DNA of 36,648 nucleotides from a virus. Taxonomy: Duplodnaviria; Heunggongvirae; Uroviricota; Caudoviricetes. The notes beneath the pieces were generated by a model. It had not been told where the DNA came from and did no database searches. It was given only the letters and a program-made list of their open reading frames with translations. This document shows positions 168 through 36,495 of this stretch, piece after piece. A program made the translations under genes and the position numbers. Within the stretch, counting starts at the first letter, position 1. The number at the start of each line of letters is the position of its first letter. Where the stretch lies: the IMG/VR virus record IMGVR_UViG_2675903330_000001; one strand, given 5' to 3'.

Positions 168-255
168 TGGCGGTGAGGGGGGGATTCGAACCCCCGATAC
201 GTTGCCGTATACACACTTTCCAGGCGTGCTCCTTCAGCCACTCGGACACCTCACC
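168..255 (-). tRNA. serX: tRNA-Ser (anticodon GGA)
   Basis: Reverse complement reads GGTGAGGTGTCCGAGTGGCTGAAGGAGCACGCCTGGAAAGTGTGTATACGGCAACGTATCGGGGGTTCGAATCCCCCCCTCACCGCCA: 88 nt, long variable arm, T-loop GGTTCGAATCC, 3' CCA; adjacency to ghrA matches the E. coli serX locus. Confidence 0.9.
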
Positions 256-449: not shown

Positions 450-1427
<978 letters not shown>

Positions 1428-1466: not shown

Positions 1467-1907
<441 letters not shown>

Positions 1908-2276: not shown

Positions 2277-2575
2277 GATTTGCCCTCGCGTGAAAAATAT
2301 TTTCGATTATTTATAAAAAAGACTTGACCAAATCAAAAGGTACTGTTCCACGGATGAAATAAAGGGAGTTTTCGGCACCCCGGTTTTTGATGTGCGTGTG
2401 AGATTTCAAAACAGGTGCAGTGCAGCCCACCAGCGCGGTCGCTACGCGACTATTAACACCCGCCAATCCCTTTCCATGCCTCGATCTTTCCCTTCGTTAT
2501 AAAGCGTTTTAGGCGCTCTCCTGAATGCGCAGATCAGATAAATAATTTTACGCAAATTTAATGGAGGATAACCGG

Positions 2576-3127
2576 ATGAAAGAAGAATTAACCCTTACAG
2601 AAATTTCCCGTTTATACGGCTATACAATTAACGCCGCTAAGAAATGGCAAGAACGAGGAATGCCATTTAATACCAATACCCGCCGCGTGCCAGCCAAAGA
2701 AGGAACAGAATGGGTCTTGAAAAATATCATCAACCCGCTTAAAGAAACTACTGTCAAGGAACAAATCGACGTAGAGAAATTACGCCGTGAGAGAGCATTA
2801 GCAGATGCAGCCGAACGAGAGAACCAGGAAGCGATGAATCTCCTGATTCCCGTCGGGTATGTGGAGCAGGAGCTAGCGGAATATTGCGGGAAAGTGAAGC
2901 AGACTATTTTGCAGATCGCCACAATCGATGCCCTAGAAATTCTCGAATCTGCCAATGACCAGAAAACATTGAAGAATAAGCTAAGAGAGATTATCGAGCG
3001 TCGTTTAAATGAAGTAGGGGACTTGTTCGAAAATGCAGATTTGGGAGAAGACGAGGAAGAAGAATTACCATTAATGGATGAACCGGAACAAGAACCAGAA
3101 GAAGACGATGAATTTGATGTGTCTTAA
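2576..3127 (+). CDS. Nu1-like winged-HTH DNA-binding protein, probable terminase small subunit
   Basis: GGAGG 8 nt upstream of the ATG at 2576. N-terminus LTLTEISRLYGYTINAAKKWQERGMP resembles the lambda Nu1 HTH (TIQNWQEQGMP); acidic C-terminal tail. A gpA-type large terminase (9781) normally pairs with a Nu1-type small subunit. Confidence 0.5.
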   Translation: MKEELTLTEISRLYGYTINAAKKWQERGMPFNTNTRRVPAKEGTEWVLKNIINPLKETTVKEQIDVEKLRRERALADAAERENQEAMNLLIPVGYVEQELAEYCGKVKQTILQIATIDALEILESANDQKTLKNKLREIIERRLNEVGDLFENADLGEDEEEELPLMDEPEQEPEEDDEFDVS

Positions 3128-3816: not shown

Positions 3817-3841
3817 GGGACTCTTCGGAGTCCTTTTTTTT
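3817..3841 (+). terminator. rho-independent terminator
   Basis: GGACTC-TTCG-GAGTCC hairpin followed by T8; the T-run overlaps the stop codon of the convergent minus-strand gene 3840-4082. Confidence 0.65.
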
Positions 3842-4082
3842 ATGCAACAATTCGAAGTGTAAGTTTCTTATGTTGTGTAGGTTTAGTTTCATTTCGCCAC
3901 TCAGGGAATACATGATCCATCATAACCGCATTAGTCTCATCAATCAGCTTTAAGGACTTTCTCAACGCCTTATTATCAGCTTTAAGTGTTTTAATCTCTG
4001 ATTCCATCGCTACCATTCTTTCTTTCATTTTGGTAATTTCTAACATCAGATTACCCAGAAATTCTTTGTTTTGATTCATCAT
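3840..4082 (-). CDS. hypothetical coiled-coil protein (80 aa)
   Basis: GAGGGG RBS upstream; heptad-rich sequence (MESEIKTLKADNKALRKSLKLIDE); last gene of a minus-strand operon. Confidence 0.5.
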   Translation of the reverse strand: MMNQNKEFLGNLMLEITKMKERMVAMESEIKTLKADNKALRKSLKLIDETNAVMMDHVFPEWRNETKPTQHKKLTLRIVA

Positions 4083-4097
4083 AGATTCACCCCTCTA

Positions 4098-5117
4098 TTA
4101 AGCTGCGTATGCGTAGGCGCTGTAGTTGGTGTCATAGATAGCGTCATGCAGTGCCATATGTGCTTCGCGGATCTCGTCTTCGTTTACTTCAATCTCTTCT
4201 TGTTCTTCTTCGGTATCTTCCCAAGTGGTTTTGAATTTAGCCATAAAGTTATTGCGCAGTGTTTCAAAGTTGGTAACTGGTGCGGATTCTGCTTCAACCG
4301 GAACCGGAACTACTACCGGATCAGCTTCTTTCTGTTCTACTTCTTCACCGTTACCCCAACGATAGTTAAGGAGTTCTTCCAGTTCTTCATCAATGGATTT
4401 TTCTTCAACTGCTTCAACTTCAACCGCTGCTACTTCGAAAGTGGTTTCCTGTGCTGACAGTTCAGCTTTCAGAGATGCGTTTTCTGCTTTAACTGCTGCC
4501 ATTTCTGCTTCCAGTTCAGCAATGCGTGCGTTCAGTGCTTCAACTTCGGAAGATTCAACCACTGCAACTTCTTCTTTAACTTCTTCAACTACTACCGGAG
4601 CAACTTCTTTCTGTGCTTCTTTTTTGCAGAAGAAGGAGGAAGTAACCTGTAATGCGTGGTTGTAGAAGGAACCGCCTTTAGTGGTGTTAACAGTACCAGA
4701 AACATCTTTTACAGTGGATTCGGTAGCAACAGTACGGAAGCGTTTAGCAACTTCCTGGGTCTCTACGCCGTATTCGTTACGCTTGCTCTTGTGATGCATT
4801 ACAGCACGGAAGCCGGAAGCAGTTTTAACAACAGCGAGATAGTAAGTTTCATCGGCTTTAGCAGCACGAGCGAAGCAATAAACGGATTCACCTTCTACCA
4901 GTGTAGGTTTAACGTGACGTTTGTCGAAACGGTTAGTGATCTGCCATTCAGCACCGTCTTTGATGCCAGCATTCTGACGCATTTCGGTCAGAGTCTTACC
5001 GGATACTACTTCAAAGGATTTGTCTTGTTTGCTTGCTTTACCTTCCATGACGGTAATGTTCAGTTTGCCGTTGGATTTAATAAACAGGTTGAAGGTGATG
5101 CGCTTAGAATTTTTCAT
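4098..5117 (-). CDS. hypothetical protein (339 aa) with N-terminal globular domain and acidic Ala/Glu-rich coiled-coil
   Basis: Longest uninterrupted frame in the region, AGGAG RBS 10 nt upstream. The plus-strand ORFs over the same DNA are fragmented Ser/Thr-rich antisense artefacts. Confidence 0.6.
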   Translation of the reverse strand: MKNSKRITFNLFIKSNGKLNITVMEGKASKQDKSFEVVSGKTLTEMRQNAGIKDGAEWQITNRFDKRHVKPTLVEGESVYCFARAAKADETYYLAVVKTASGFRAVMHHKSKRNEYGVETQEVAKRFRTVATESTVKDVSGTVNTTKGGSFYNHALQVTSSFFCKKEAQKEVAPVVVEEVKEEVAVVESSEVEALNARIAELEAEMAAVKAENASLKAELSAQETTFEVAAVEVEAVEEKSIDEELEELLNYRWGNGEEVEQKEADPVVVPVPVEAESAPVTNFETLRNNFMAKFKTTWEDTEEEQEEIEVNEDEIREAHMALHDAIYDTNYSAYAYAA

Positions 5118-5233: not shown

Positions 5234-5413
5234 TTAACAAACTTGAACGTTAATCTTTATCTGAATTTCGTATTTCTTCATTAGCTTATAGAATCCGCTT
5301 CTATCAATTCCTTCCTTCTTAAAGAAATTCTCGCCGCCTCGTTCAGTATCGCCATAAAAGCGTTTAGCAATATCAACAATCATTTCACGAGTAAACTTAA
5401 CAGGTCTAGCCAT
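5234..5413 (-). CDS. small HTH DNA-binding protein (59 aa), candidate transcriptional regulator
   Basis: ATG at 5413 with GAGGA RBS (the track start at 5428 is a TTG). C-terminal GIDRSGFYKLMKKYEI looks like a helix-turn-helix. First gene of a minus-strand operon diverging from the large intergenic region. Confidence 0.45.
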   Translation of the reverse strand: MARPVKFTREMIVDIAKRFYGDTERGGENFFKKEGIDRSGFYKLMKKYEIQIKINVQVC

Positions 5414-5981
5414 AAGTAGATTCCTCAAATGTGGATTAATAAGGACAATAAAAAGAGCTTTTCGCCCTCGATACTTCTATTTATAAAAGTCATTTCAGAA
5501 AACCCTGCAAAACCACTGTATATCTGATCAGTGGGAGCACGAATTGCTAAAGAGAAGATTAATAATTAATCAATTCGTACATTATTCAATCGAAAAAGCA
5601 CTGTGTGTTTAACCAGTGCTGTGTGTGTTAACAGTGAATCAGGGGATTTTCAGAAGTGAACAATCATTTCATGCATGTATTTATACACGAAAAAATCTTG
5701 TTTATCATCAATATGTGGATTGTTTCGAAAATTTCAACCCCTACCAATGAGAAAAAGTATAAAATAATCCTTGACAGTTGTCAATGCACTTGACCTAAGC
5801 GAGAAATGACTATCAAAATTTTTGTGTGAAAATGGCGGATAACGATTATCAACCTTTATAACCTATTATAGCACGGCGACCTTTTGATAATTCTTTTTAA
5901 ATCATGCATTTACAGCGATTTTTGGTGATTTTCCGGTTAAATAATATACAAGAATTTTCTATCAAAATTTTTGATGAAAAA

Positions 5982-6122
5982 CCTACACTACAAACCTACG
6001 CTTTAAAGGTATTGGCCTACACTACACTAGTCAGTAAACCTACACTATAACACCCTCAAACCTACACTATGAAACCCTCAAACCTACACTATGAAACCTA
6101 CACACCTACACTAACCCTACAC
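5982..6122. repeat. iteron-like array: at least 9 copies of CCTACAC within about 21-bp tandem units (AAACCTACACTATGAAACCCTC)
   Basis: Direct count of CCTACAC/CCTACGC at 5982, 5995, 6016, 6039, 6061, 6083, 6097, 6105 and 6116. Confidence 0.8.
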
Positions 6123-6700
6123 TTCAATCTCATAAGTGTATGATCTTGAAAGACATTTCACCCCACAGACCATAGAATATAAAATTCGAACTAACGTTCT
6201 CCTTTTTGCTCGTTTTCTCTCACTACGTTCAAGAAAGATCTCGCAAAAAGAATACGGCGTAGCCGTGCGCGAAGCGCCCATCAACACCTTCTAAGACCTG
6301 CAAGCAGGATTCGAAAGGGATTGGATAGTTCGCTTCGCTCACGTTCACGCCTACGGCGTTCACTCGCTTTTGAAAGGATTTTCTTAGAAAGGGATTTAAT
6401 ACTAGTTACTAACTGATTCTAGTAAACGAACGAAGTGAGTAACAATCACTTTCTAGAAAGGTATTGGTATCCCTTCGGGATTGCAACCTTCGGTTGCTAA
6501 ATTGCTTCCTGATTATAATTTCTCCAAAAGAAAGATTCTTATATTCTAAAGATACTTCTTCGTTTTGATGATGATTTAATCAAATATATGAAGGAGGGCT
6601 TTAGCCCGACTGAATCCAATCACTTCCAAATAGATAAAAAATTCTCGTTATAAATAATAGTGAACTTACTTGATTCACTTTCTTTTAGAGGATTTCCACT

Positions 6701-7150
6701 ATGATCAATACTAAAACTCCTTTCGTACTTCTGGGTCTGGACTCTGAAAACTATGGCAACTTCCATATGCTAGAAGTTTTCGCTAATCGTGGTTATAACA
6801 TCATTCGTCATTCCGAAGACTCCAACTACTCAACTGCTTTCTACGCTTTAAAACGAAATGGTCGTCCTACTGTGATCATCGACTGTTTTACTGATGAGGG
6901 TCGTCTTCAATACAACGATATTCCAGCAATTATTGTTCGTGATGATCTGCCGTTTCAAGTCCGTTCCGGTGACATTGACCTGGGTAGCTTCTTGACTCTT
7001 CGTGAACTGGATGAAGCAATGTTTAATTACGGTAAAGAAACCGCTCAGGAAGCCCCAGAACAAGATGAGGAAGACGAAGACTACGCACCAATCGCTTTCT
7101 CTTCTCACGGTGGCTTCTACGGTTACGATGAAGGCTTAGATATGCTGTAA
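6701..7150 (+). CDS. hypothetical protein (149 aa) with acidic C-terminal tail
   Basis: AGAGGA RBS; codon usage strongly biased to E. coli optimal codons; C-terminus EAPEQDEEDEDYAPIAF ... FYGYDEGLDML. Confidence 0.55.
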   Translation: MINTKTPFVLLGLDSENYGNFHMLEVFANRGYNIIRHSEDSNYSTAFYALKRNGRPTVIIDCFTDEGRLQYNDIPAIIVRDDLPFQVRSGDIDLGSFLTLRELDEAMFNYGKETAQEAPEQDEEDEDYAPIAFSSHGGFYGYDEGLDML

Positions 7151-7185
7151 GTTAGGTCAACCCTTTGGCGTCTTGTCAAGGGGTA

Positions 7186-7214
7186 TTGACAAAAATTTCT
7201 GACTTTTTTATGAT
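7186..7214 (+). promoter_or_regulatory. sigma70-type promoter (TTGACA, 17 bp, TATGAT)
   Basis: Near-consensus -35 and -10 with 17-bp spacer, 57 bp upstream of the 7271 ATG; followed by a second TTGACA and a TTGACCTAG motif that also occurs at 5787-5800. Confidence 0.5.
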
Positions 7215-7270
7215 TATCGCACTTGACAACTTTGAACCTATTTGACCTAGATTTGTAAAGAGGATGTAAC

Positions 7271-7603
7271 ATGAAAGAATTTACCATCACTAAATCCCTG
7301 TATGACTGGACTGTTAAAATCTCCGGCAAAACCGTTTCTGTAACCCCTAGCCATGTAGAAAATGATTGGGGTGTATCCCGTGAAACTATCTCCCGTAGTA
7401 TGCATGTTCCGTTTGATCTGATGACCTTAACTGGTATTCATGCAATGCTGGAAGTTCGCGAGCAATTCGAAGCTGGTAATCACAATGCGACTCCAGTTAA
7501 CAATCACCTTCTTACTAATGAAGAACGTGAAATCATCGAAAATTGGCGTTATGAATATGCGATTCCTTATTATGAAGAAGACCAAGTAGAAATCGATTGG
7601 TAA
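7271..7603 (+). CDS. hypothetical protein (110 aa)
   Basis: AGAGGA RBS, intact ORF, optimal codon usage. Confidence 0.5.
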   Translation: MKEFTITKSLYDWTVKISGKTVSVTPSHVENDWGVSRETISRSMHVPFDLMTLTGIHAMLEVREQFEAGNHNATPVNNHLLTNEEREIIENWRYEYAIPYYEEDQVEIDW

Positions 7604-7692
7604 TAAATTTCTATCATAAATAAAAATGTTCCGGTGGTGATGCCGGAACTAGGAGGATCAATATCACTAAACCGTTTAAGGGGAATTTTACT

Positions 7693-8526
7693 ATGAATAC
7701 TGTTACTACTATGAATACTGCTGTTAAAACTGCTTCCGTGTCTCTGGTTGTTGATAACGAAGTTGCAAAAATGACTCTTCGTGAAATTGCCGACCTTATT
7801 GGAGTTCGTTTTTCAAACCTTGAAACTTCTATGAACCGACTGGTTGAACGCCAAGTTATCCGAAAACCTGCAACGCAGAATTTCGAGAAAATCAATAACT
7901 TAGGGTTTGCTGTTACTGTTAAAGATTATGTGTTTGAGGGTGAGCAAGGTCGCTTAGATTCGATTGTCTTGATTGCTCAAAACGTACCGGAATTTACTCG
8001 CCAACTGGTTGACCGTTGGAATTATCTGGAAGAGAAACTGAAAACCGCCAATAATACTCCTGTTAACCCGTATGCGGACTTTGAAGAAACCGACTGGATC
8101 GAACTGGCATTAGATGAAAAACGCAAAAATAAAAAACTGATTGAGCTACACATTCGCAAATCCGTAGATAGCCATTCTATGACACGTCTGTTAGGCGCTA
8201 AAAAGGGCGCTACGAAGGTTAAACAAGCACTGACGGCCTTACGTACTGCTGGCTACATTGAGCGCGTCTATGATGAAAATAACAAGCCGTGTGGGTATGT
8301 TGCTAATGACTCTTCTCTGTCTTTCTGCCGCATGAATGCTCATTACCAGCTTGAGTTTACTGTTGATGTTCTTCCGGTGCTGGTTGAATTGGGCGTTTTG
8401 GAAGAAGAACAGAAAGCAACTCTTAAACTGCCGCAGCCAAATAACACTATTCTGATTCAAAACAAAGCTGCTAAACAGATTCGTGAATCAGGTAACGTAA
8501 TTTCCCTTGTTGATTTTGGGATCTGA
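7693..8526 (+). CDS. phage regulatory protein, Rha-like (putative antirepressor)
   Basis: AAGGGGA RBS; N-terminal MTLREIADLIGVRFSNLETSMNRLVERQ resembles the Rha-family N-terminal DNA-binding region. Confidence 0.45.
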   Translation: MNTVTTMNTAVKTASVSLVVDNEVAKMTLREIADLIGVRFSNLETSMNRLVERQVIRKPATQNFEKINNLGFAVTVKDYVFEGEQGRLDSIVLIAQNVPEFTRQLVDRWNYLEEKLKTANNTPVNPYADFEETDWIELALDEKRKNKKLIELHIRKSVDSHSMTRLLGAKKGATKVKQALTALRTAGYIERVYDENNKPCGYVANDSSLSFCRMNAHYQLEFTVDVLPVLVELGVLEEEQKATLKLPQPNNTILIQNKAAKQIRESGNVISLVDFGI

Positions 8527-8830: not shown

Positions 8831-9061
8831 TCAAATTCCTGTTGCTTCTACCATTTCACCGTCAACCTGAACAAAGAATTTCAAATCAACTTTATGTAGG
8901 GATTTGTATAGCTGGGCTATAGATAAGCCATGCTCATTTAATACCCGTTCTTTGTTCTCTTTACCTTTCGGTGCTTGATAGTACGCTTTTACAATCGCTG
9001 CCAGTTGTTCACGATTAAAACGGGCAGGGCGACCGCGAGTAGCTTTAGTAGTCATAGTCAT
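8831..9061 (-). CDS. small DNA-binding protein (about 75 aa)
   Basis: GGAG RBS; ATG at 9061 or 9055; TKATRGRPARFNREQ followed by an HTH-like GLSIAQLYKSLHK. Confidence 0.45.
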   Translation of the reverse strand: MTMTTKATRGRPARFNREQLAAIVKAYYQAPKGKENKERVLNEHGLSIAQLYKSLHKVDLKFFVQVDGEMVEATGI

Positions 9062-9090
9062 TTTCTCCAAATTAAAGTGAATGTTCACCT

Positions 9091-9693
9091 TTATTTAGAG
9101 GACTTACATTTTATAGGAAAAAGTTCTCCATCGTCAACCGACATAAAGAACTCTGCCTTAATCCCGTACTTCTTCAACCGTGAATAGTATGTACCCCGAC
9201 TTATATCAACCTTGCGCAGCACTTCGAAGAAGGACTTAGGATCGTTGTAATAGTGGCTATATCGCACGTTAGCGAGTTCTACAAACAATTCCCTTGTATC
9301 ACCATAGCCTTTCTTAAAAGCCTCGTTACGATAGCGTGTAATAGCGTGATTCAATCTCTTCTGTTTCAACACTTCTCGGATCGGCTTCCACTGCAACCGA
9401 TAGATAGGACCGTCATCAATGCGATAATAACGCTTGATATCAAAATCAAACCAATCTCGGACTCTCCGAAACTCTGTATGTGATGTTCTATGCTTCTTAA
9501 AGAAGTTGTGAACGTCTGTATAACCATTATCGCGGTAAAATTCTATTAAAATCTCTTTCGCTTCCTCACGGCTAAACCCAGATGTTGTGTAGTCGGTCTT
9601 CTTGTGATGGTGCTTAACTGGCAAACGATATTCATGATCGGTACAAGACAAGGCTAATTCTAATTCATCTCTTTCTTGCTGATTAATTAGCAT
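9091..9693 (-). CDS. hypothetical HTH-containing protein (200 aa)
   Basis: Transcribed divergently from terL; C-terminal [23 protein letters not shown] is HTH-like; an internally repeated basic/aromatic segment. Confidence 0.45.
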
Positions 9694-9780: not shown

Positions 9781-11685
9781 ATGAAACTAATTTCTAATAA
9801 GGCCAAATTAAAAAAGATTCTTAAAAATGCAGCCAAATATATTACGCCACCGCCTAAACTCCTTCCATCGGAATGGTGCGAATCTAATATGGTGCTGGTA
9901 GATGGTCCTCAAGCTGGGGATAAAGTTAAATTGCTGTCATTCCAGAAAGGTATGATTGATGCTCCTTTCCTTGAGAACAAGAAAAAGTATGTTCTGATGA
10001 CCAGTGCGCAGATCGGAAAGACTACCATCCTGAACGGTATCCTGTTTAACCAGATGGCTAACGATCCATGCAATATGATTATCGGACAATCAACCGCTAA
10101 AGAAATGTCTCAATATCTCGCTGGTAAGATCCGACCGTCTATCGAAGCATGTGATGCATTAAAAGACGTGGTTACAGACAAGAATGATCGCAATTCTGTT
10201 AATAACAACAATCAGCTCCAGCTCAAATCAAACCACTTCCTTTATATGGTATCGCTTACTAGTCCATCAACCCTGCGCGGTAAGACTGCAAAGGTCGGAC
10301 TACTAGACGAAATCGATGCTGCTACAGCCTCAGAAGAAGGTGATCCGGTGGCACTGGCTGCTAACCGTTTAACTACCTTTGGCGATGAAGGCCGATTAGT
10401 CGTATCCAGTACCCCGACCAGTAAGCTGGGAAGCATTAACCAGCAATGGTTATCAAGTGATATGCGTATGTTTTTTGTTCCGTGTCCTCATTGCGGGGAA
10501 CACCAGGTGATCGAGTGGGAAAACGTTCAATTTGAATGGCGTAACATCGATGGTAAGAACTTACCCGATCCTGATACCGCTCGTTATATTTGCCCCCACT
10601 GTAAGAACGCATGGACAGAAGGGGAACGAATCAGGGCAGTAGCACAAGGCGAGTGGAGAGCAACCCGTGAAAGTGAAGTAGCCGGATTCTGGATTAGCCG
10701 TCTGTATTCACCTTTCAGCACGATCCGCGCTTGTGTGGTTGATTTTAGTCATGCGTGGCAATCCTTTGATTTACAATCATTTTATAACACCGTGTTAGGC
10801 AAAGTATACGACGATCAGGACACGGCAGTAGAAGCAAATGAACTGGAACAACTCAAAACAGATGTTTCTATCGAGAATATCCCTGATGACGTGATTTTCT
10901 TGTGTGCGGGTACTGACCAGCAATTAGATCGCGCAGAAACTACAATCATGGGCGTGGCAAAGGATAAGATTTATATTCTGGATCATCGCAGCTTTTACGA
11001 TCATAACTGTGAACGATATGAATCCCCTGTATGGGATAGATTAATCAACTTCCATAAAACCAAATTTACTACTGTATCTGGTGATCGTGTTCCTATGCTC
11101 GCCAGCTTCCTTGATACATCGAACGGTCGATTCACTCAAGCTGGATACCGTATTTGCGGCAAGTGGAAGAACTTACACGCTATCAAAGGTAGTTCTGCTG
11201 GTAACGCTCCGATCATTCCGGTTAAACCTACCCGCACAGGTGGTCATGAATTGCTTATGTTGGGTGTTAATGTGGGTAAAACTGCATTTCGTGAAATGTT
11301 GGCTAGGAACCTGAAAGATAATCCTCATATTGGCTTAGAAATATCAGACACCGTTCCTGATGATTATCTCGATCAGCTTTTAAGTGAATCTGTCAAGCGT
11401 ACTACTACTGGCGTGAGATGGGTAAAGAACCCAGGCGTTAGGAACGAGGCGCTCGACTGCGCCGTGTATGCTACAGCGGCTTCTCGCTACGTCCTTTCAA
11501 AAATGTCATGGGATAAACTCATTGCAATGAAAGACAGCTTAAACAGCGTTAAAGAAGAACCCGTAAAAGCTCCTGAATCGCAATCTGACGAGCAAATCGA
11601 AGAAACTAAGCCAATCACACGACCGCAACGTCAAAACATCGCCAGACGCCCAAATAGAGGCCGTAGCTGGGTAACATCGTTCTAA
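9781..11685 (+). CDS. terminase large subunit, lambda gpA-like
   Basis: GAGGG RBS; Walker A-like [10 protein letters not shown]; paired Cys motifs CPHCGEHQ ... CPHCKNAW; 634 aa; lies upstream of the portal gene. Confidence 0.8.
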
Positions 11686-27141: not shown

Positions 27142-27561
27142 ATGCTAAAAACTAGGCTTATCACCGATTACATCAATTCTTTAATAGGTCAGGAGTTCGT
27201 TCAGGGGGAGAATGATTGCAATCTAATTGCATGTAAGATCATCGATATTCTCGCTGGTACTGACCTATATAATTCTCTTTATAAAAAATATTCAACTAAA
27301 GAAGAAGGCTTGAAAATCTGCAAAGAATTAAGCGGATACACAAATATCCTTCAACCAATTAAGAAACATTTCAAATTAGTCACTGATGATTTACAGGACG
27401 GCGACTTACTGGTCACAGCCCACAAATTAGGAAACCGCAAATATTATTCCGTAGTTCCTCATTATTCCGGTTATGGCCTCGTTGAAGAAGATGGTATCTG
27501 GATGACCATTCCTGTTTCAGACATTGACTATGAACAAGTTTATAGATTCGGGGGTGAATAA
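27142..27561 (+). CDS. minor tail protein, gpK-like (possible NlpC/P60-type peptidase domain)
   Basis: GGAGG 8 nt upstream of the ATG at 27142; Cys (ENDCNL) and His (VVPHYSG) spaced as in C40 peptidases; position before the J-like gene. Confidence 0.45.
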   Translation: MLKTRLITDYINSLIGQEFVQGENDCNLIACKIIDILAGTDLYNSLYKKYSTKEEGLKICKELSGYTNILQPIKKHFKLVTDDLQDGDLLVTAHKLGNRKYYSVVPHYSGYGLVEEDGIWMTIPVSDIDYEQVYRFGGE

Positions 27562-30500
27562 TGGGATTTGAAATATTAGTAGGCGCGGTTATTGCTGGTG
27601 CGTCTGCTGGGATGGCTGCTGCTGCAACGTTTTCTGTTATGACCGCAGTCGCTATCGGTATGGCTGCTGGTGCAATGACCTTGATCGCTTCCACTGTAGG
27701 CGCACCAAAAACACCGAAAGTACAAAGCCCAGATAATGCGGTGACACTAGGAACATCAAACGATCCTAAGACAGTATTACCCGTTCTTTTTGGTACTACC
27801 CGCACGGGTGCAATCTGCGTTTACAAGGCAATTTCACAGCGTGAAAATAACAAGCTGGTACAAATTTTTGCTATTGCCGAAGGTGAGATCGATCACTTTA
27901 AAGCACTGCACATCGATAATAAAAACGTTCTCATTAGCCAGAATATGACAATTCGTGATGGCATTCTCGATAAAGGAAACATTAAAGACGAATACCGCAA
28001 AGTTTTAGAAGTCGAGTTTCGCACGGGTAAAAATCCTAACACTGCATTGGATTTAGCTAAACATCATTTGGGCGCTGATTGGGATGATCGGTATCAGGGT
28101 AACGGCATTGCGACCATGTGTATTGTTTTACGTCGTGATGACAAATCTTTGGCTGCTGGTGTTGATATTCTCCAGCCTAATAGCCAGGTAGCGGTCGATG
28201 TTATGGGCTTAAAGATTCGTAACCTTGAAACCAATGCTATTGAGGCTAGCACTAACGGCGTGGACCAGATTTTCCATTATCTGACAAATACAAAGTATGG
28301 TCTTAGTGTACCGATTGAAAATATTAACGTTGATTCATTCCTGAAAGTGCGTAAACAAGTACGCCAGATGGATTTACATTCCAACGGTGCATGTGATCCG
28401 AACGCCAGCTTTAAAGAGAACTTAACTAGCCTTATGCAGACTTTCGGCGGGGTGATGTTCGAATCCTTTGGACGTATTACGCTGAAACTGGATGCTCCTG
28501 ATATTGTTAAGCATACCTTCAATGAAGACAATATCATGATGGGTAAGGTATCACTGAAAACAGGTGGCACTAACGGTTATTTCAATACCATTAACGCGAT
28601 GTATCAAGAACCATCAATCGACTATTCAGAGCAAATGCTACGTTATCCGGCTGATGCTGAAAACGATGCTACTATTCGTCAAGATGGTCGAATTATCGCT
28701 AAAGACATTGAATATCGTTTTGTTAAGTCTAAAGCCCAGATTGATAAACTAGCGAGTGTAGAACGAAATAAATCTCGTATCACTCAGGTTATCAGCTTTA
28801 TGACTACTGACGCATTCACCGCCGAAGTATGGGACGTTATCAGCGTAACCTATGATGAATTAAAACTGAATAATTCACTTTGGCGTATTACTGCAATTGA
28901 TCGTTCTATTGATTCTGGTATTGCTGGGATGATGACTATCACCGCTACAGAATATAATTCTCAGGTTTATACTGACCTGAACTATGCGGCGACTCCAGAC
29001 AATAGACCTACTGGTTTACCGGATTCAATGACAGTACAGAAACCGACTAATTTCAGAATTAAGGCAACTGGTGAGACAATCCACGGTAAAAACGTTACTT
29101 TGACATGGGATGCACCGGAAGATTTTAACCGCTACGGTTTCCAGATTGATTACCGTGTAAGTGGATCGCCTAACTGGATTAAGCTGGGGCAGACTTCACA
29201 GCAAATTTTCAATATCAATGCACTGGCAAAAGATCGCTCCTACGATTACCGCGTTTGTGCTTTCGGTATTATTGCTCGTTCCGAATGGGTGGAACTGGTT
29301 AACCAGAATCCTACTGTTACCTATGAATTGCCGACTCCGGTTATTCGAATCAAAAATCAGGGTAGCACGCCTGGTACTTTCGAAGGCAATGATCTGATTA
29401 TCGAATGGGAAAATCAGCAACAATTAGATGTGATGATCAACGGTGAAGCTAACAAGTTTAGTGACCTGTTTGAAGCATACATTATCAAGGTAACTAACAA
29501 GGCTGGTAAGTCTATTCAGTACCGTACCCGCGATCCTGAATCATGGACTTATACGCTTGATATGAACCAGTTTAACGGCCTTTCCCGTGAATTGACGGTA
29601 GAAGTATCAGTCAAGGGCTATAACAACTCAGAGAGCGCCCCAGCGCGTTTAGTGGCTATCAACCCACAACATAAGCCGATGAAAGGTTTTAGTGCGCGTG
29701 GTGGCTTTAATACTGCGTTTGTTAGCTGGGCGGATGACGTAGAACATGACTATGCAGGGTCAATCATTCAGTATGCAACCGATAATACTTTCTCCGATGC
29801 AAGGGCAGTGACTACCAATAGCGTTAGTCATACTTCCTTTGATTTGGCTGACGGTGATTATTATATCCGTGGTGCTCACTATGATATTTTCGGTATGGAT
29901 GATGCTGTTTGGTCTGAACCGTATTTCATGCAAATGAAATCTACCATTAGCTGGGACGATCAGGACAAAGAAGCACTGGAAGACCTGATTGGTTTACAAG
30001 ATCGCTTAGATGAAACCATCGCGGATGCTATTGCTCAAGCTGGCGCTAATGCCGATGCTAAGATTGATGCAATGCATAAACAGATTACTACCGAGACAGG
30101 GCAGACGGTCCAAGCCTCAGCCGATACTCTCAAGAGTCTGATTGCTACCAGTGAGCAAGCCAGCGCAACTAAGATTGATCAGGTTAAAGCTGAACTGAAA
30201 GGCGATATCACCAAAGAAGTTAGCGCATCCGCTACTACCCTGAAACAAGCAATTGCTACCAGCGAGGCAGCAAGCGCAAGTAAGATTGATCAAGTTCGGG
30301 TAGAAATGGATGGCAAGATTGCTGGTGTGAATCAGGAAGCAGATGTAAAAATCGATGCTTTGAAGGGAACCATTAACAGCAAATATAATCTGGCAGTTAA
30401 TGCAGATGGTCGCGTGGCTGGTATTCATATGAGCGCAACCAATGATCCGGCAGAACCGACAAGAATCATCTTTACGGCTGATAAAATCGCGGTAGCTCCA

Positions 30501-34827: not shown

Positions 34828-36495
34828 TTAAATTCCAAATTCCTGTAATGGACCTGGTATTTCCTCTTCTGGTTTCCAGTCTTTATCTGTCAGCATGTCT
34901 AAACATGGATGCAGAACAAGCCCGTTACTCTCCAGAATCTGCCTATCATTGATAGTTTTCAAATCGACAAAGATTTGTCCTTTCCTCGTTCCTCTTGAAT
35001 TTTCTATTACAACTCTCTGGGTCTTTCCATCGATGTATTCCAGCACAAACAAGTTTTTATTTCTGTCAATCCTGCTACACCCGATCCGCTTTAGAGCTTG
35101 CTTAATCTTAAACCGGACCTTTAGTCGTTCCTCGTTATAAACATCTTCTAAATCAAATTCTGCGAGCTTCTCCCAGCCTTGAGAGTCCACAGAATACATT
35201 TCCTCTTCTGCCATCTTGATCTGATTGTAGAGTGTTTCACGCTCGCTATTGAGGGTAGTAATCTGATCGGCTAGCTCCTTCGTTGCTCCTGTCATAGCAG
35301 AAAGGGCAATCAGGTTATCAATCTTGCGTGATATCTCATCAACCTGTACTTTCAACGCCGGAACCGGATTAGCCTTGTCCTCAGCAATCCATATTTTATC
35401 AGCCAGCAATTGCAATACAGCTTTCTCTAATTGATCACCTCGAAAACTCCAGTTTGGATGCTCGCAATCAAGTCTACGTGAACGGGTCGCATCACATGTA
35501 TAACGATACTGGTCAGAACGTTTGTTCGTTCCCTTCACTTTAACCATAGCGCAACCGCAATGATCACATTTCAATAGGCCAATACCACTAAGCAGGGGGA
35601 TCGGTTTAACTTCTTCCTTGTCTCCAAAGTTCCATGCTCTAGCACCAATATTTTTCTTAAGGTGATAGAACGTAGCATCATCAATAACACGAGGGTAATA
35701 ATCCTTTAACTCATAGTTAACACCATCTACAGAGACTTCCTTGATACCAATCAAAGCGCGGGTATGGAACAACCTTTCAACCATTGCCCGTGACCATTTT
35801 GAATGCTTCTTATTACTAACCGCTGGTGGCGGTGTATATGTCTCGTTAAGGTGATCCAGTATTTCGGCGGTTGAACGTCCATTCTTCCGTAATTCCACAA
35901 TCTCCTGAACAACAGGGAAGTATGTAGGATGAGGCAACACATAACCGGAAGTGGTATCCGTCCACCACATATTCTTTCCAACTTCCTCGATTGCCACTGC
36001 CGGATTCTGGGGATTTTCTTGATGGGCTTTAATCTTAATCAGTGCGCTTGAGTTAGTACGATTGCGCTTAGTCTGGCTTTCCTCATTACCACGGATGAAT
36101 AAAAGGATGGAGAACATCAGGTCCATCGGGTTAGCGGTAACAGTATCCAGCGAGTAGATCTTGTTATCCATGCCAGTAACAATGGTTATCCCCCTACGGA
36201 TGATTGAAAGGAATAACTCCTGCGCACTGACAATATCGGCACGGGATAAGCGGTCCAAGTTTTCAATGAATAGCCAGCTACCAACAGGAACGGATCTACC
36301 AATTGCATCAAGGAAACGAGATAGCGCCCCTGTTTTGGAGTTAGCACCCTTAAACGCAGATACACCCAGATCCTGATAATCATTTACCAGTTCAAGGTCA
36401 TACTTTGCCGCAACCTCTCTCGCCATCCTGATTTGTCGTTCATAACTCGAACCATCATTCTGACGCATAGACGAGAAGCGAATATACGAATACAG
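34828..36495 (-). CDS. large serine recombinase (prophage integrase), 5' end interrupted by IS1
   Basis: Resolvase-type catalytic region, recombinase domain, zinc ribbon (CDHCGC ... CDATRSRRLDCEH) and coiled-coil. The catalytic Y-x-R-x-S motif (LYSYIRFSS) lies upstream of the first ATG (36468) and runs directly into the IS1 terminus at 36496 with no start codon in between. Confidence 0.8.
   Translation of the reverse strand: MYSYIRFSSMRQNDGSSYERQIRMAREVAAKYDLELVNDYQDLGVSAFKGANSKTGALSRFLDAIGRSVPVGSWLFIENLDRLSRADIVSAQELFLSIIRRGITIVTGMDNKIYSLDTVTANPMDLMFSILLFIRGNEESQTKRNRTNSSALIKIKAHQENPQNPAVAIEEVGKNMWWTDTTSGYVLPHPTYFPVVQEIVELRKNGRSTAEILDHLNETYTPPPAVSNKKHSKWSRAMVERLFHTRALIGIKEVSVDGVNYELKDYYPRVIDDATFYHLKKNIGARAWNFGDKEEVKPIPLLSGIGLLKCDHCGCAMVKVKGTNKRSDQYRYTCDATRSRRLDCEHPNWSFRGDQLEKAVLQLLADKIWIAEDKANPVPALKVQVDEISRKIDNLIALSAMTGATKELADQITTLNSERETLYNQIKMAEEEMYSVDSQGWEKLAEFDLEDVYNEERLKVRFKIKQALKRIGCSRIDRNKNLFVLEYIDGKTQRVVIENSRGTRKGQIFVDLKTINDRQILESNGLVLHPCLDMLTDKDWKPEEEIPGPLQEFGI

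Follow-up and report, generated by a model that had tools for sequence, protein, structure and literature searches.

Type-specific repeat arrays of ycdX prophages as the probable binding site of an orphan protein and a possible replication origin

The window analysed in this work, that is, the whole stretch of 36,648 nucleotides recorded in IMG/VR as IMGVR_UViG_2675903330_000001, consists of E. coli chromosome with a prophage of about 34.5 kb inserted in ycdX, and between two divergent operons of this prophage lies an array of short direct repeats. Comparison of the related sequences indicates that this array (5979–6126) is very probably the double-stranded DNA binding site of the N-terminal domain (N-domain) of a 339-amino-acid (aa) protein encoded in the leftward operon. 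A wider proposal is clearly more tentative: the 339-aa protein and its relatives would form an undescribed family of sequence-specific DNA-binding proteins with a new beta-rich recognition domain, whose recognition would have been rewritten at least six times together with the array, the pair would be the sole initiator and origin encoded by the phage, and the early operon may be held off by the LexA protein of the host.

The leftward operon carries the genes of the 59-, 339- and 80-aa proteins (from 5413 down to 3840) and the rightward operon those of the 149-, 110- and 277-aa proteins, the last being Rha-like (6701–8526); two further small genes are read leftward (9693–8831), and the early region is composed wholly of orphan genes. 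No replication protein and no repressor was recognised in the prophage with Pfam, PHROGs, NCBIfam and PADLOC. The gap between the divergent operons, from the start of the 59-aa gene at 5413 to the next gene at 6701, measures 1287 bp and its open reading frames (ORFs) reach only 44–56 aa, in agreement with the initial annotation of the sequence, which had described 1.29 kb without credible ORFs. The gap is likewise empty of RefSeq annotation across eight related E. coli genomes. The 339-aa gene is the second of its operon and is located 0.9 kb from the array, with a conserved stretch of 0.7 kb, the promoter region and the 59-aa gene in between.

Covariation of the repeat array with the 339-aa protein

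In the window the motif CCTACAC is found exactly eight times in the array, always on the plus strand, at positions 5982, 6016, 6039, 6061, 6083, 6097, 6105 and 6116. An additional unit at 5996 reads CCTACGC, so that the count of at least nine CCTACAC given by the initial annotation holds only with one mismatch allowed; the cores span 5982–6122. The successive units start 14, 20, 23, 22, 22, 14, 8 and 11 bp apart. Tandem Repeats Finder reports a period of 22 bp (3.5 copies, 91% matches) at 6036–6113, which bears out the earlier description of a tandem array with units of about 21 bp. These distances keep the helical phase, three successive spacings being of 22–23 bp and the others either summing to about 22 bp (14 + 8) or being equal to 11 bp. 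In the entire window CCTACAC occurs 12 times against 2.2 expected from shuffled sequences, and none of 100 shuffles reached 12 copies.

Related early regions were detected in 59 of 5,426 complete E. coli genomes, and also in IMG/VR prophage contigs and in Salmonella. In an alignment of nine of these loci (A1) the gap is conserved over 570 bp on its left side and 250 bp on its right side, with the middle, which contains the array and about 300 bp, present in unrelated versions. Six types of array can be distinguished by their repeated motif: CCTACAC in type A (6–11 copies), CCTGCAC in type A' (5–6 copies), TTGCCCCTGAAA in type B (6–10 copies), TCCCCG in type C (13–16 copies), TCCCCCGGATTAGG followed by GATGTACAAGG in type D (approximately 8 and 10 copies) and GTAGGAGGTGT plus ATTGCTT in type E (approximately 12 and 8 copies). 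Arrays of one type may differ in their copy number, from 6 to 11. The protein encoded at the position of the 339-aa gene has a common plan in the different loci: the beta-rich and type-specific N-domain (about 175 residues) is accompanied by a coiled coil and an acidic stretch, and the last residues are usually -AA. Homology between N-domains is detectable among types A, C1 and D1.

In all 44 distinct versions that were compared (A 21, B 17, C 3, D 1, A' 1, E 1) the type of the array is also the type of the N-domain. No other gene tracks the array: the alleles of the 59-aa gene ignore its type, the 149-aa protein is 99% identical in a type-B locus, and the small-terminase-like protein reaches 96% identity in a type-C locus against 78% in a type-A locus, the identity of the large terminase within type A being 58%. 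The suggestion that the array could serve one of the adjacent DNA-binding proteins is strongly supported for the 339-aa protein, which covaries perfectly, and not for the 59-aa protein, the terminases and the other neighbours. Because array type and N-domain type match without exception, we conclude that the 339-aa protein very probably binds at the array.

Two further comparisons turn this linkage into co-evolution. Firstly, the N-domain of P0123, the corresponding protein of locus L064, is 45% identical to that of the window, and its array has CCTGCACTA in all 5–6 copies where the window has CCTACACTA, a difference of one base, from A to G. Secondly, the Salmonella loci with an N-domain about 80% identical keep CCTACACTA 7–10 times; between Salmonella and E. 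coli arrays the positions of the motif are 82–85% identical and the other array positions 57–62%, with diverged spacers and flanks. The binding would concern duplex DNA rather than RNA, since spacings of 21–22 bp and their multiples recur in types A and B (21, 22, 42 and 43 bp in type B), inverted units occur within loci L062 and L065, and the entire array is inverted in type E.

The known protein families offer no counterpart of this proposed binder. When the 339-aa protein and the proteins corresponding to it in types B, C and A' were compared with Pfam, PHROGs, NCBIfam, PADLOC and the sequences of the PDB, coiled-coil noise alone was obtained, and an exhaustive phmmer search with the N-domain gave three real relatives only. 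One-genome-per-species scans with P0123 and with the 200-aa protein, the product of another leftward gene (9091–9693), gave no match, as did a viral-contig scan with P0123; within the collection searched, neither the 339-aa nor the 200-aa protein is encoded by any cultured phage.

Several observations concern the extremities of these proteins and the composition of the arrays. In the window and in the counterparts of loci L008, L021, L059, L064 and L065, the proteins at the 339-aa position mostly end in -AA (YAYAA, LDFAA, NIAA, VRKAA, VRRAA or DLAA), some endings being different (NFSYCQ, ALLAM), and their downstream partners, of 80 to 363 aa, all end in (T/G)LR(L/I)VA, an ending which we take to be loosely similar to the QLxLxL sliding-clamp-binding motif. 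These C-termini might act as degradation tags for proteases or as docking peptides. The 80-aa partner gives way in types C, D and E to a protein of 333–363 aa ending in TLRLVA. Concerning the arrays, type-B loci usually retain 2–3 CCTACAC units next to their B array, two B-type units are present in the type-A locus L060 of Salmonella, and L068 and L069 are likewise hybrid, which suggests that the cassette exchange breaks inside the arrays. Two near-perfect units of the window, AAACCTACACAA and AAACCTACACTG, are located within genes. They were considered as a second set of iterons and rejected as such, being found in type A only, with no counterpart in types B, C and D, and coinciding with codons for Lys-Pro-Thr in both cases, which may be a coincidence.

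A possible replication origin and the regulatory alternative

We estimate at roughly 45% the probability that the array and the AT-rich element adjoining it form the lytic replication origin of the phage, with the 339-aa protein as its initiator. According to this reading, the 339-aa protein would be made from the strong leftward promoter upon induction of the prophage. Induction would probably proceed via the SOS response, because three LexA-box-like sites are found in the leader of the operon. The protein would oligomerise through its coiled coil, probably with the 80-aa partner, and would coat one face of the helix at the sites phased by 21–22 bp. It would then open or remodel the AT-rich element (5826–5975), a putative unwinding or host-factor region on which the host replication proteins would be loaded, in the manner of lambda O or of a plasmid Rep protein on its iterons. 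The six interchangeable types of protein and array would then be types of replication specificity.

The AT-rich element is a first reason to favour an origin, because the array, in the window and in most other versions, adjoins this conserved stretch of about 150 bp and, in loci L065 and L062, clusters of the motif flank it on both sides. The element is kept in types A to E and in the Salmonella locus L062, even beside replaced sequence. It is associated with the two exact copies of CTATCAAAATTTTTG (5810–5824 and 5959–5973), 149 bp apart, and with the inverted TTTTGATA (5882–5889) described in the initial annotation. The second copy of CTATCAAAATTTTTG is inside a perfect 15-bp palindrome, ATCAAAA-T-TTTTGAT (ATCAAAATTTTTGAT, 5961–5975), and the TATCAAAATTTTTG repeat is better viewed as a half palindrome or an entire one. 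The stretch 5936–5985 is among the approximately eight least stable 50-bp stretches of the window. In loci L060 and L064, at the counterpart of about 5800–5975, the TATCAAAATTTTTG element is swapped for a cluster of GTGCAA/TTGCAC that includes the perfect palindrome GTGCAATTGCAC; this cluster of the Salmonella-type lineages is a second swappable set of sites adjoining the array.

Further support comes from the phased direct repeats, the variable copy number and the pair of sites of L062, which looks autoregulatory, these being habits of iterons and their initiators; initiators commonly autoregulate. In L062 the two units stand just downstream of the promoter of the operon, at about +15 to +45. 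In addition, the phage needs an initiator and no other candidate is found among its genes. Finally, the LexA-box-like sites of the leader point to expression at the time of the SOS response. These sites were matched to CTGT-N8-ACAG with at most one mismatch, and can also be described as CTG-N10-CAG; they are kept in most of the E. coli and Salmonella relatives. They suggest that the 339-aa protein is made on induction and, consequently, that it is not the maintenance repressor. Given that the prophage has no recognisable repressor gene, the host LexA may itself hold the early operon off.

Several results weigh against an origin. No exact DnaA box was found, the boxes with one mismatch numbering three against approximately one expected, and the region 5300–6800 has no strict integration host factor (IHF) site, WATCAANNNNTTR, so that the IHF-like pattern perceived in the initial annotation is weak. 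The GC skew, proposed earlier as a check, tracks the direction of transcription and marks no origin. The core motif is short (9–14 bp) and its spacing irregular (8–23 bp), unlike classical iterons, which are of 17–22 bp and regularly spaced. Less stable DNA than the AT-rich element exists elsewhere in the window; the diverged lineages L060 and L068 have a different sequence at the position of this element, and of the two Salmonella lineages one (L062) has it. The 339-aa protein matches no known Rep, O or helicase-primase family and is without a match by fold as well as in the sequence libraries searched. The LexA-box-like sites are 110–235 bp downstream of the predicted start point of transcription and are absent from one lineage, which has a second version of the leader. 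Moreover, the array is located between divergent transcription units, with single units over promoters in L062 and L064, a disposition which fits a transcription regulator equally well.

This last point leads to the alternative that best survives, namely an operator or enhancer array through which the 339-aa protein would act as a type-specific regulator of the divergent early promoters or of the rightward 149/110/Rha-like operon, the six types being regulatory or immunity types. We regard it as rather unlikely, and as a less probable explanation than the origin. The evidence of linkage and co-evolution applies to it equally, and the array indeed adjoins a strong promoter: the clustered TTGACA and TTGACC elements noted initially are all present, TTGACA (5771–5776) and TGTCAA (5779–5784) forming together the palindrome TTGACAGTTGTCAA (5771–5784), followed by TTGACC (5790–5795), and the equivalent promoter of L062 is TTGACA-17-TATAAT. 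Besides the pair of units near this leftward promoter in L062, one unit of L064 overlaps the start of the rightward TTGACT-17-TAGAAA promoter. Furthermore, no repressor being recognisable in the phage, an orphan protein must take that role. On the other hand, no unit of the window overlaps a predicted promoter, and the length (150–500 bp), the orientation and the position of the array relative to its flanks differ between types, which is unusual for a promoter-proximal control. To our knowledge, 8–15 direct repeats far exceed the operators of phages such as lambda, P22 and 186. The searches revealed neither a helix-turn-helix nor a peptidase S24 domain, whether in the 339-aa protein or in the rest of the prophage, and, if the LexA-box-like sites work, the protein would be absent from the resting lysogen and could not be the maintenance repressor.

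Under either function, the pair formed by the array and the protein names a cis site, a trans factor, the key bases, by way of a natural A-to-G switch of specificity, and five alternative specificities. From the six matched pairs of protein and site, which nature provides ready-made, a new code of protein-DNA recognition could be learned, and orthogonal DNA-binding parts might be obtained. If the array is an origin, the 339-aa protein would define a new family of initiators and explain the copying of a phage without known replication genes; if it is a regulatory array, the pair would be the switch of a phage without known repressor. In both cases the family of Escherichia and Salmonella prophages concerned is widespread and yet unstudied; a literature search on ycdX prophages and on the RefSeq protein accessions found nothing concerning the prophage.

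Less probable functions and comparison with known systems

All readings besides the origin and the regulatory array are improbable, even when taken together. A role at the RNA level, in which a long 5' leader or a non-coding RNA would be bound by the protein (as a sponge or an attenuator) or in which the array would be a C-rich site for loading Rho, is very improbable. The plus strand of the arrays of types A to C is C-rich and G-poor and conserved hairpins are abundant downstream. However, units are inverted within one and the same locus and type E has the opposite orientation, type D has a second array (GATGTACAAGG) that lacks the richness in C, the helical phasing belongs to double-stranded DNA, promoter prediction gave no good candidate for transcription across the array, and no relevant Rfam match was obtained.

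Hardly any weight can be given to a partition centromere, as had been proposed initially, with a centromere-binding protein comparable to those of ParR/parC, the omega heptads of pSM19035 or P1 ParB/parS and a plasmid-like state of the prophage. Short direct-repeat arrays beside the operon of their binder are typical of centromeres of types Ib, II and III, and the 339-aa protein has a coiled coil. This reading is nevertheless disfavoured because the element is always integrated, all the copies found being chromosomal and located either in ycdX or at one other site, because none of 72,556 plasmid records matches the region and because no partner NTPase (ParA, ParM or TubZ-like) is encoded in the prophage, which moreover encodes a serine integrase. 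A packaging site of the cosB or pac kind, bound by the small subunit of the terminase or an accessory factor, would suit a large terminase of the lambda gpA type, the cosB of lambda being made of repeated small-subunit sites and an IHF site with a specificity that differs between lambda and phage 21, but is equally remote and was rejected, the array type being independent of both terminase genes, of which the large one is at a distance of 3.6 kb from the array and the small-subunit-like one at 2.8 kb.

The pair of protein and array resembles the O, Rep and staphylococcal pathogenicity island (SaPI) systems in the way it would operate, a modular N-terminal recognition domain being paired in each of them with a repeat array close by, beside AT-rich DNA; by sequence and predicted fold it stands outside those families. 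As in the lambdoid ori/O systems, with their ori types lambda, 82, phi80 and 21, repeats are found beside an AT-rich stretch, the specificity is N-terminal in a protein of about 300 aa, cassettes are swapped among otherwise similar phages, a small partner gene is located downstream and transcription occurs nearby. In lambda, however, the iterons are inside the O gene and consist of four 19-mers with dyad symmetry, whereas the present array has 6–15 short asymmetric units at 0.9 kb from the gene; the 339-aa protein, beta-rich and with a coiled coil, has no Pfam or PHROG similarity to O, and the phage lacks any recognisable gene of the P or helicase kind. Iteron plasmids (P1 oriR/RepA, F ori2/RepE, R6K, RK2, pSC101) share with our array the repeats phased by about 22 bp, the cognate initiator, the AT-rich neighbour, the autoregulatory sites at the initiator promoter (here in L062) and the variable number of iterons. 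They differ in having winged-helix Rep initiators and clear DnaA boxes, neither of which was found here, and in that the present element is an integrating phage.

The origins of SaPI and of phage-inducible chromosomal islands (PICI) offer another parallel, with cores of 6–9 bp, irregular spacing, clusters on both sides of an AT-rich element (here in L065 and L062) and a strict specificity of the pair between related elements; in staphylococcal pathogenicity island origins, two sets of short repeats flank the AT-rich region. Their initiators are helicases with a primase partner, of which none is encoded here, and the present element is unlike them a phage in full, with genes for head, tail and lysis. 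The omega heptads of pSM19035 and ParR/parC also have 7–10 short direct or inverted repeats and a cooperative, oligomeric binder which regulates promoters as well. The omega and ParR proteins are, in contrast, ribbon-helix-helix proteins which act with a partition ATPase on plasmids, whereas we found neither ATPase nor plasmid state, and the 339-aa protein is larger and without fold match. As for the control of the early operon, SOS-box-like sites before an early operon that would comprise the replication function and the absence of a recognisable CI-type repressor recall the LexA-governed prophages such as the Bacillus phage GIL01 and the rstA promoter of CTXphi; the LexA sites of the window differ from these in that they are predicted only, are far downstream of the promoter and are missing in one lineage.

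Neighbouring genes and other features of the region

The coordinates of the features are given in Table 1. Beyond the genes listed, the prophage encodes a portal protein, a protease-capsid fusion, tail proteins and an M15 endolysin.

Table 1. Positions of the array, of its associated elements and of the genes cited in the text (positions in the window)
Feature	Position	Strand	Description
tRNA-Ser	171–255		only Rfam match above gathering score in the window
ghrA	450–1427		chromosomal flank
ycdX, truncated	1482–1907		precedes the prophage
Nu1-like, small-terminase-like protein	2561–3127		
80-aa coiled-coil partner	3840–4082	−	ends in LTLRIVA; seen only alongside the type-A protein
Extra near-perfect unit AAACCTACACAA	3873–3884	−	inside the 80-aa gene
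339-aa orphan protein, proposed binder of the array	4098–5117	−	beta-rich type-specific N-domain (~1–175), coiled coil (~189–233), acidic disordered region, C-terminus YAYAA
Extra near-perfect unit AAACCTACACTG	4899–4910	−	inside the 339-aa gene
59-aa protein	5234–5413	−	first gene of the leftward operon; two alleles, ~54% identical, not following array type
Three LexA-box-like palindromes	5515–5634	.	leader of the leftward operon: ACTGTATATCTGATCAGT (5515–5532), ACTGTGTGTTTAACCAGT (5600–5617), CTGTGTGTGTTAACAG (5619–5634)
Near-consensus sigma-70 promoter, TTGACA-17-TATACT	5756–5784	−	11/12 matches; directed at the 59/339/80-aa operon; −35 within TTGACAGTTGTCAA; conserved in alignment A1
Conserved AT-rich element adjoining the array	5826–5975	.	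both CTATCAAAATTTTTG copies (the first reaching the left edge), ATCAAAATTTTTGAT, TTTTGATA and invariant TTATCAACC (5846–5854); alignment A1
Repeat array	5979–6126	+	nine direct units, consensus AAACCTACACTAYA; eight exact CCTACAC cores, CCTACGC in unit 5993–6006; type-A version of the swappable cassette
GC-rich hairpin and T-run	6244–6290	−	terminator-like for leftward transcription, ending ~120 bp before the array
Large terminase	9781–11685		lambda gpA-type
Serine integrase	34828–36468		last gene of the prophage

The 59-aa product had been presented initially as a helix-turn-helix protein, which could not be confirmed, no match being found in the libraries. The 59-aa protein, the 85-aa protein (8831–9088) and the C-terminal part of the 200-aa protein, all three encoded on the minus strand, are distant paralogues (33–38% identity by tblastn), and the first two have a common N-terminal (G)RPxxF stretch. 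No known family was matched by any of the three. The conserved palindromes of the region are candidate binding sites for these proteins. The Nu1-like gene is 6.6 kb from the large terminase gene, the entire early region being in between, and its product might alternatively be an excision protein or a regulatory DNA-binding protein.

To the right of the array, types C, D and E have an analogous but different hairpin and T-run at the position of the terminator-like structure of the window. On the minus strand of 6244–6445, the invariant TGATTCTAG corresponds to the −10 element TAGAAT of a TTGTTA-18-TAGAAT promoter (6445 to 6416), followed by the hairpin and U-run (6290 to 6244), and a leftward non-coding RNA of about 165 nucleotides (6409 to about 6247) may be produced from this segment. 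The minus strand of 6190–6520 folds with a z-score of −5.45 compared with −2.7 for the plus strand, the covariation across five sequences being weak. Adjacent GC-rich hairpins with a UUC loop, AUCCC-UUC-GGGAU and GCAACC-UUC-GGUUGC, are found on the plus strand at 6469–6497 and show no variation among nine E. coli loci; the loci of types D and E have at this position the unrelated hairpin GACGCTC-AGG-GAGCGTC instead. A search of Rfam over 5300–6800 gave nothing relevant at gathering or permissive thresholds, the best E-value being 2.4.

Among sequenced phage isolates no related early region was found, the sole match being a stretch of 75–84 bp at 6509–6592, which is 76–85% identical to unannotated intergenic spots of the T4-like Krischvirus (RB49/JSE group). 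This patch is located between the tail-fibre genes 35 and 36 in one record and near hoc and gp24.3 in another, and some records have it in two places. The 1174-aa tail fibre of the prophage also matches the distal long-tail-fibre families of the T4 type, and these two matches suggest exchange with T-even phages.

As for the genomic environment of the relatives, loci L065, L066 and L067 occupy the second chromosomal site, where the neighbouring genes encode a peptidase U32 and a HicB-like antitoxin. Locus L001 has lost most of its head genes through a deletion by an IS1 (27364–28061). In E. coli PE15 (L005, NZ_CP041628.1, 1–2375), an ISApl1-mcr-1.1 unit, which carries colistin resistance, is found just past the gene of the type-B protein.

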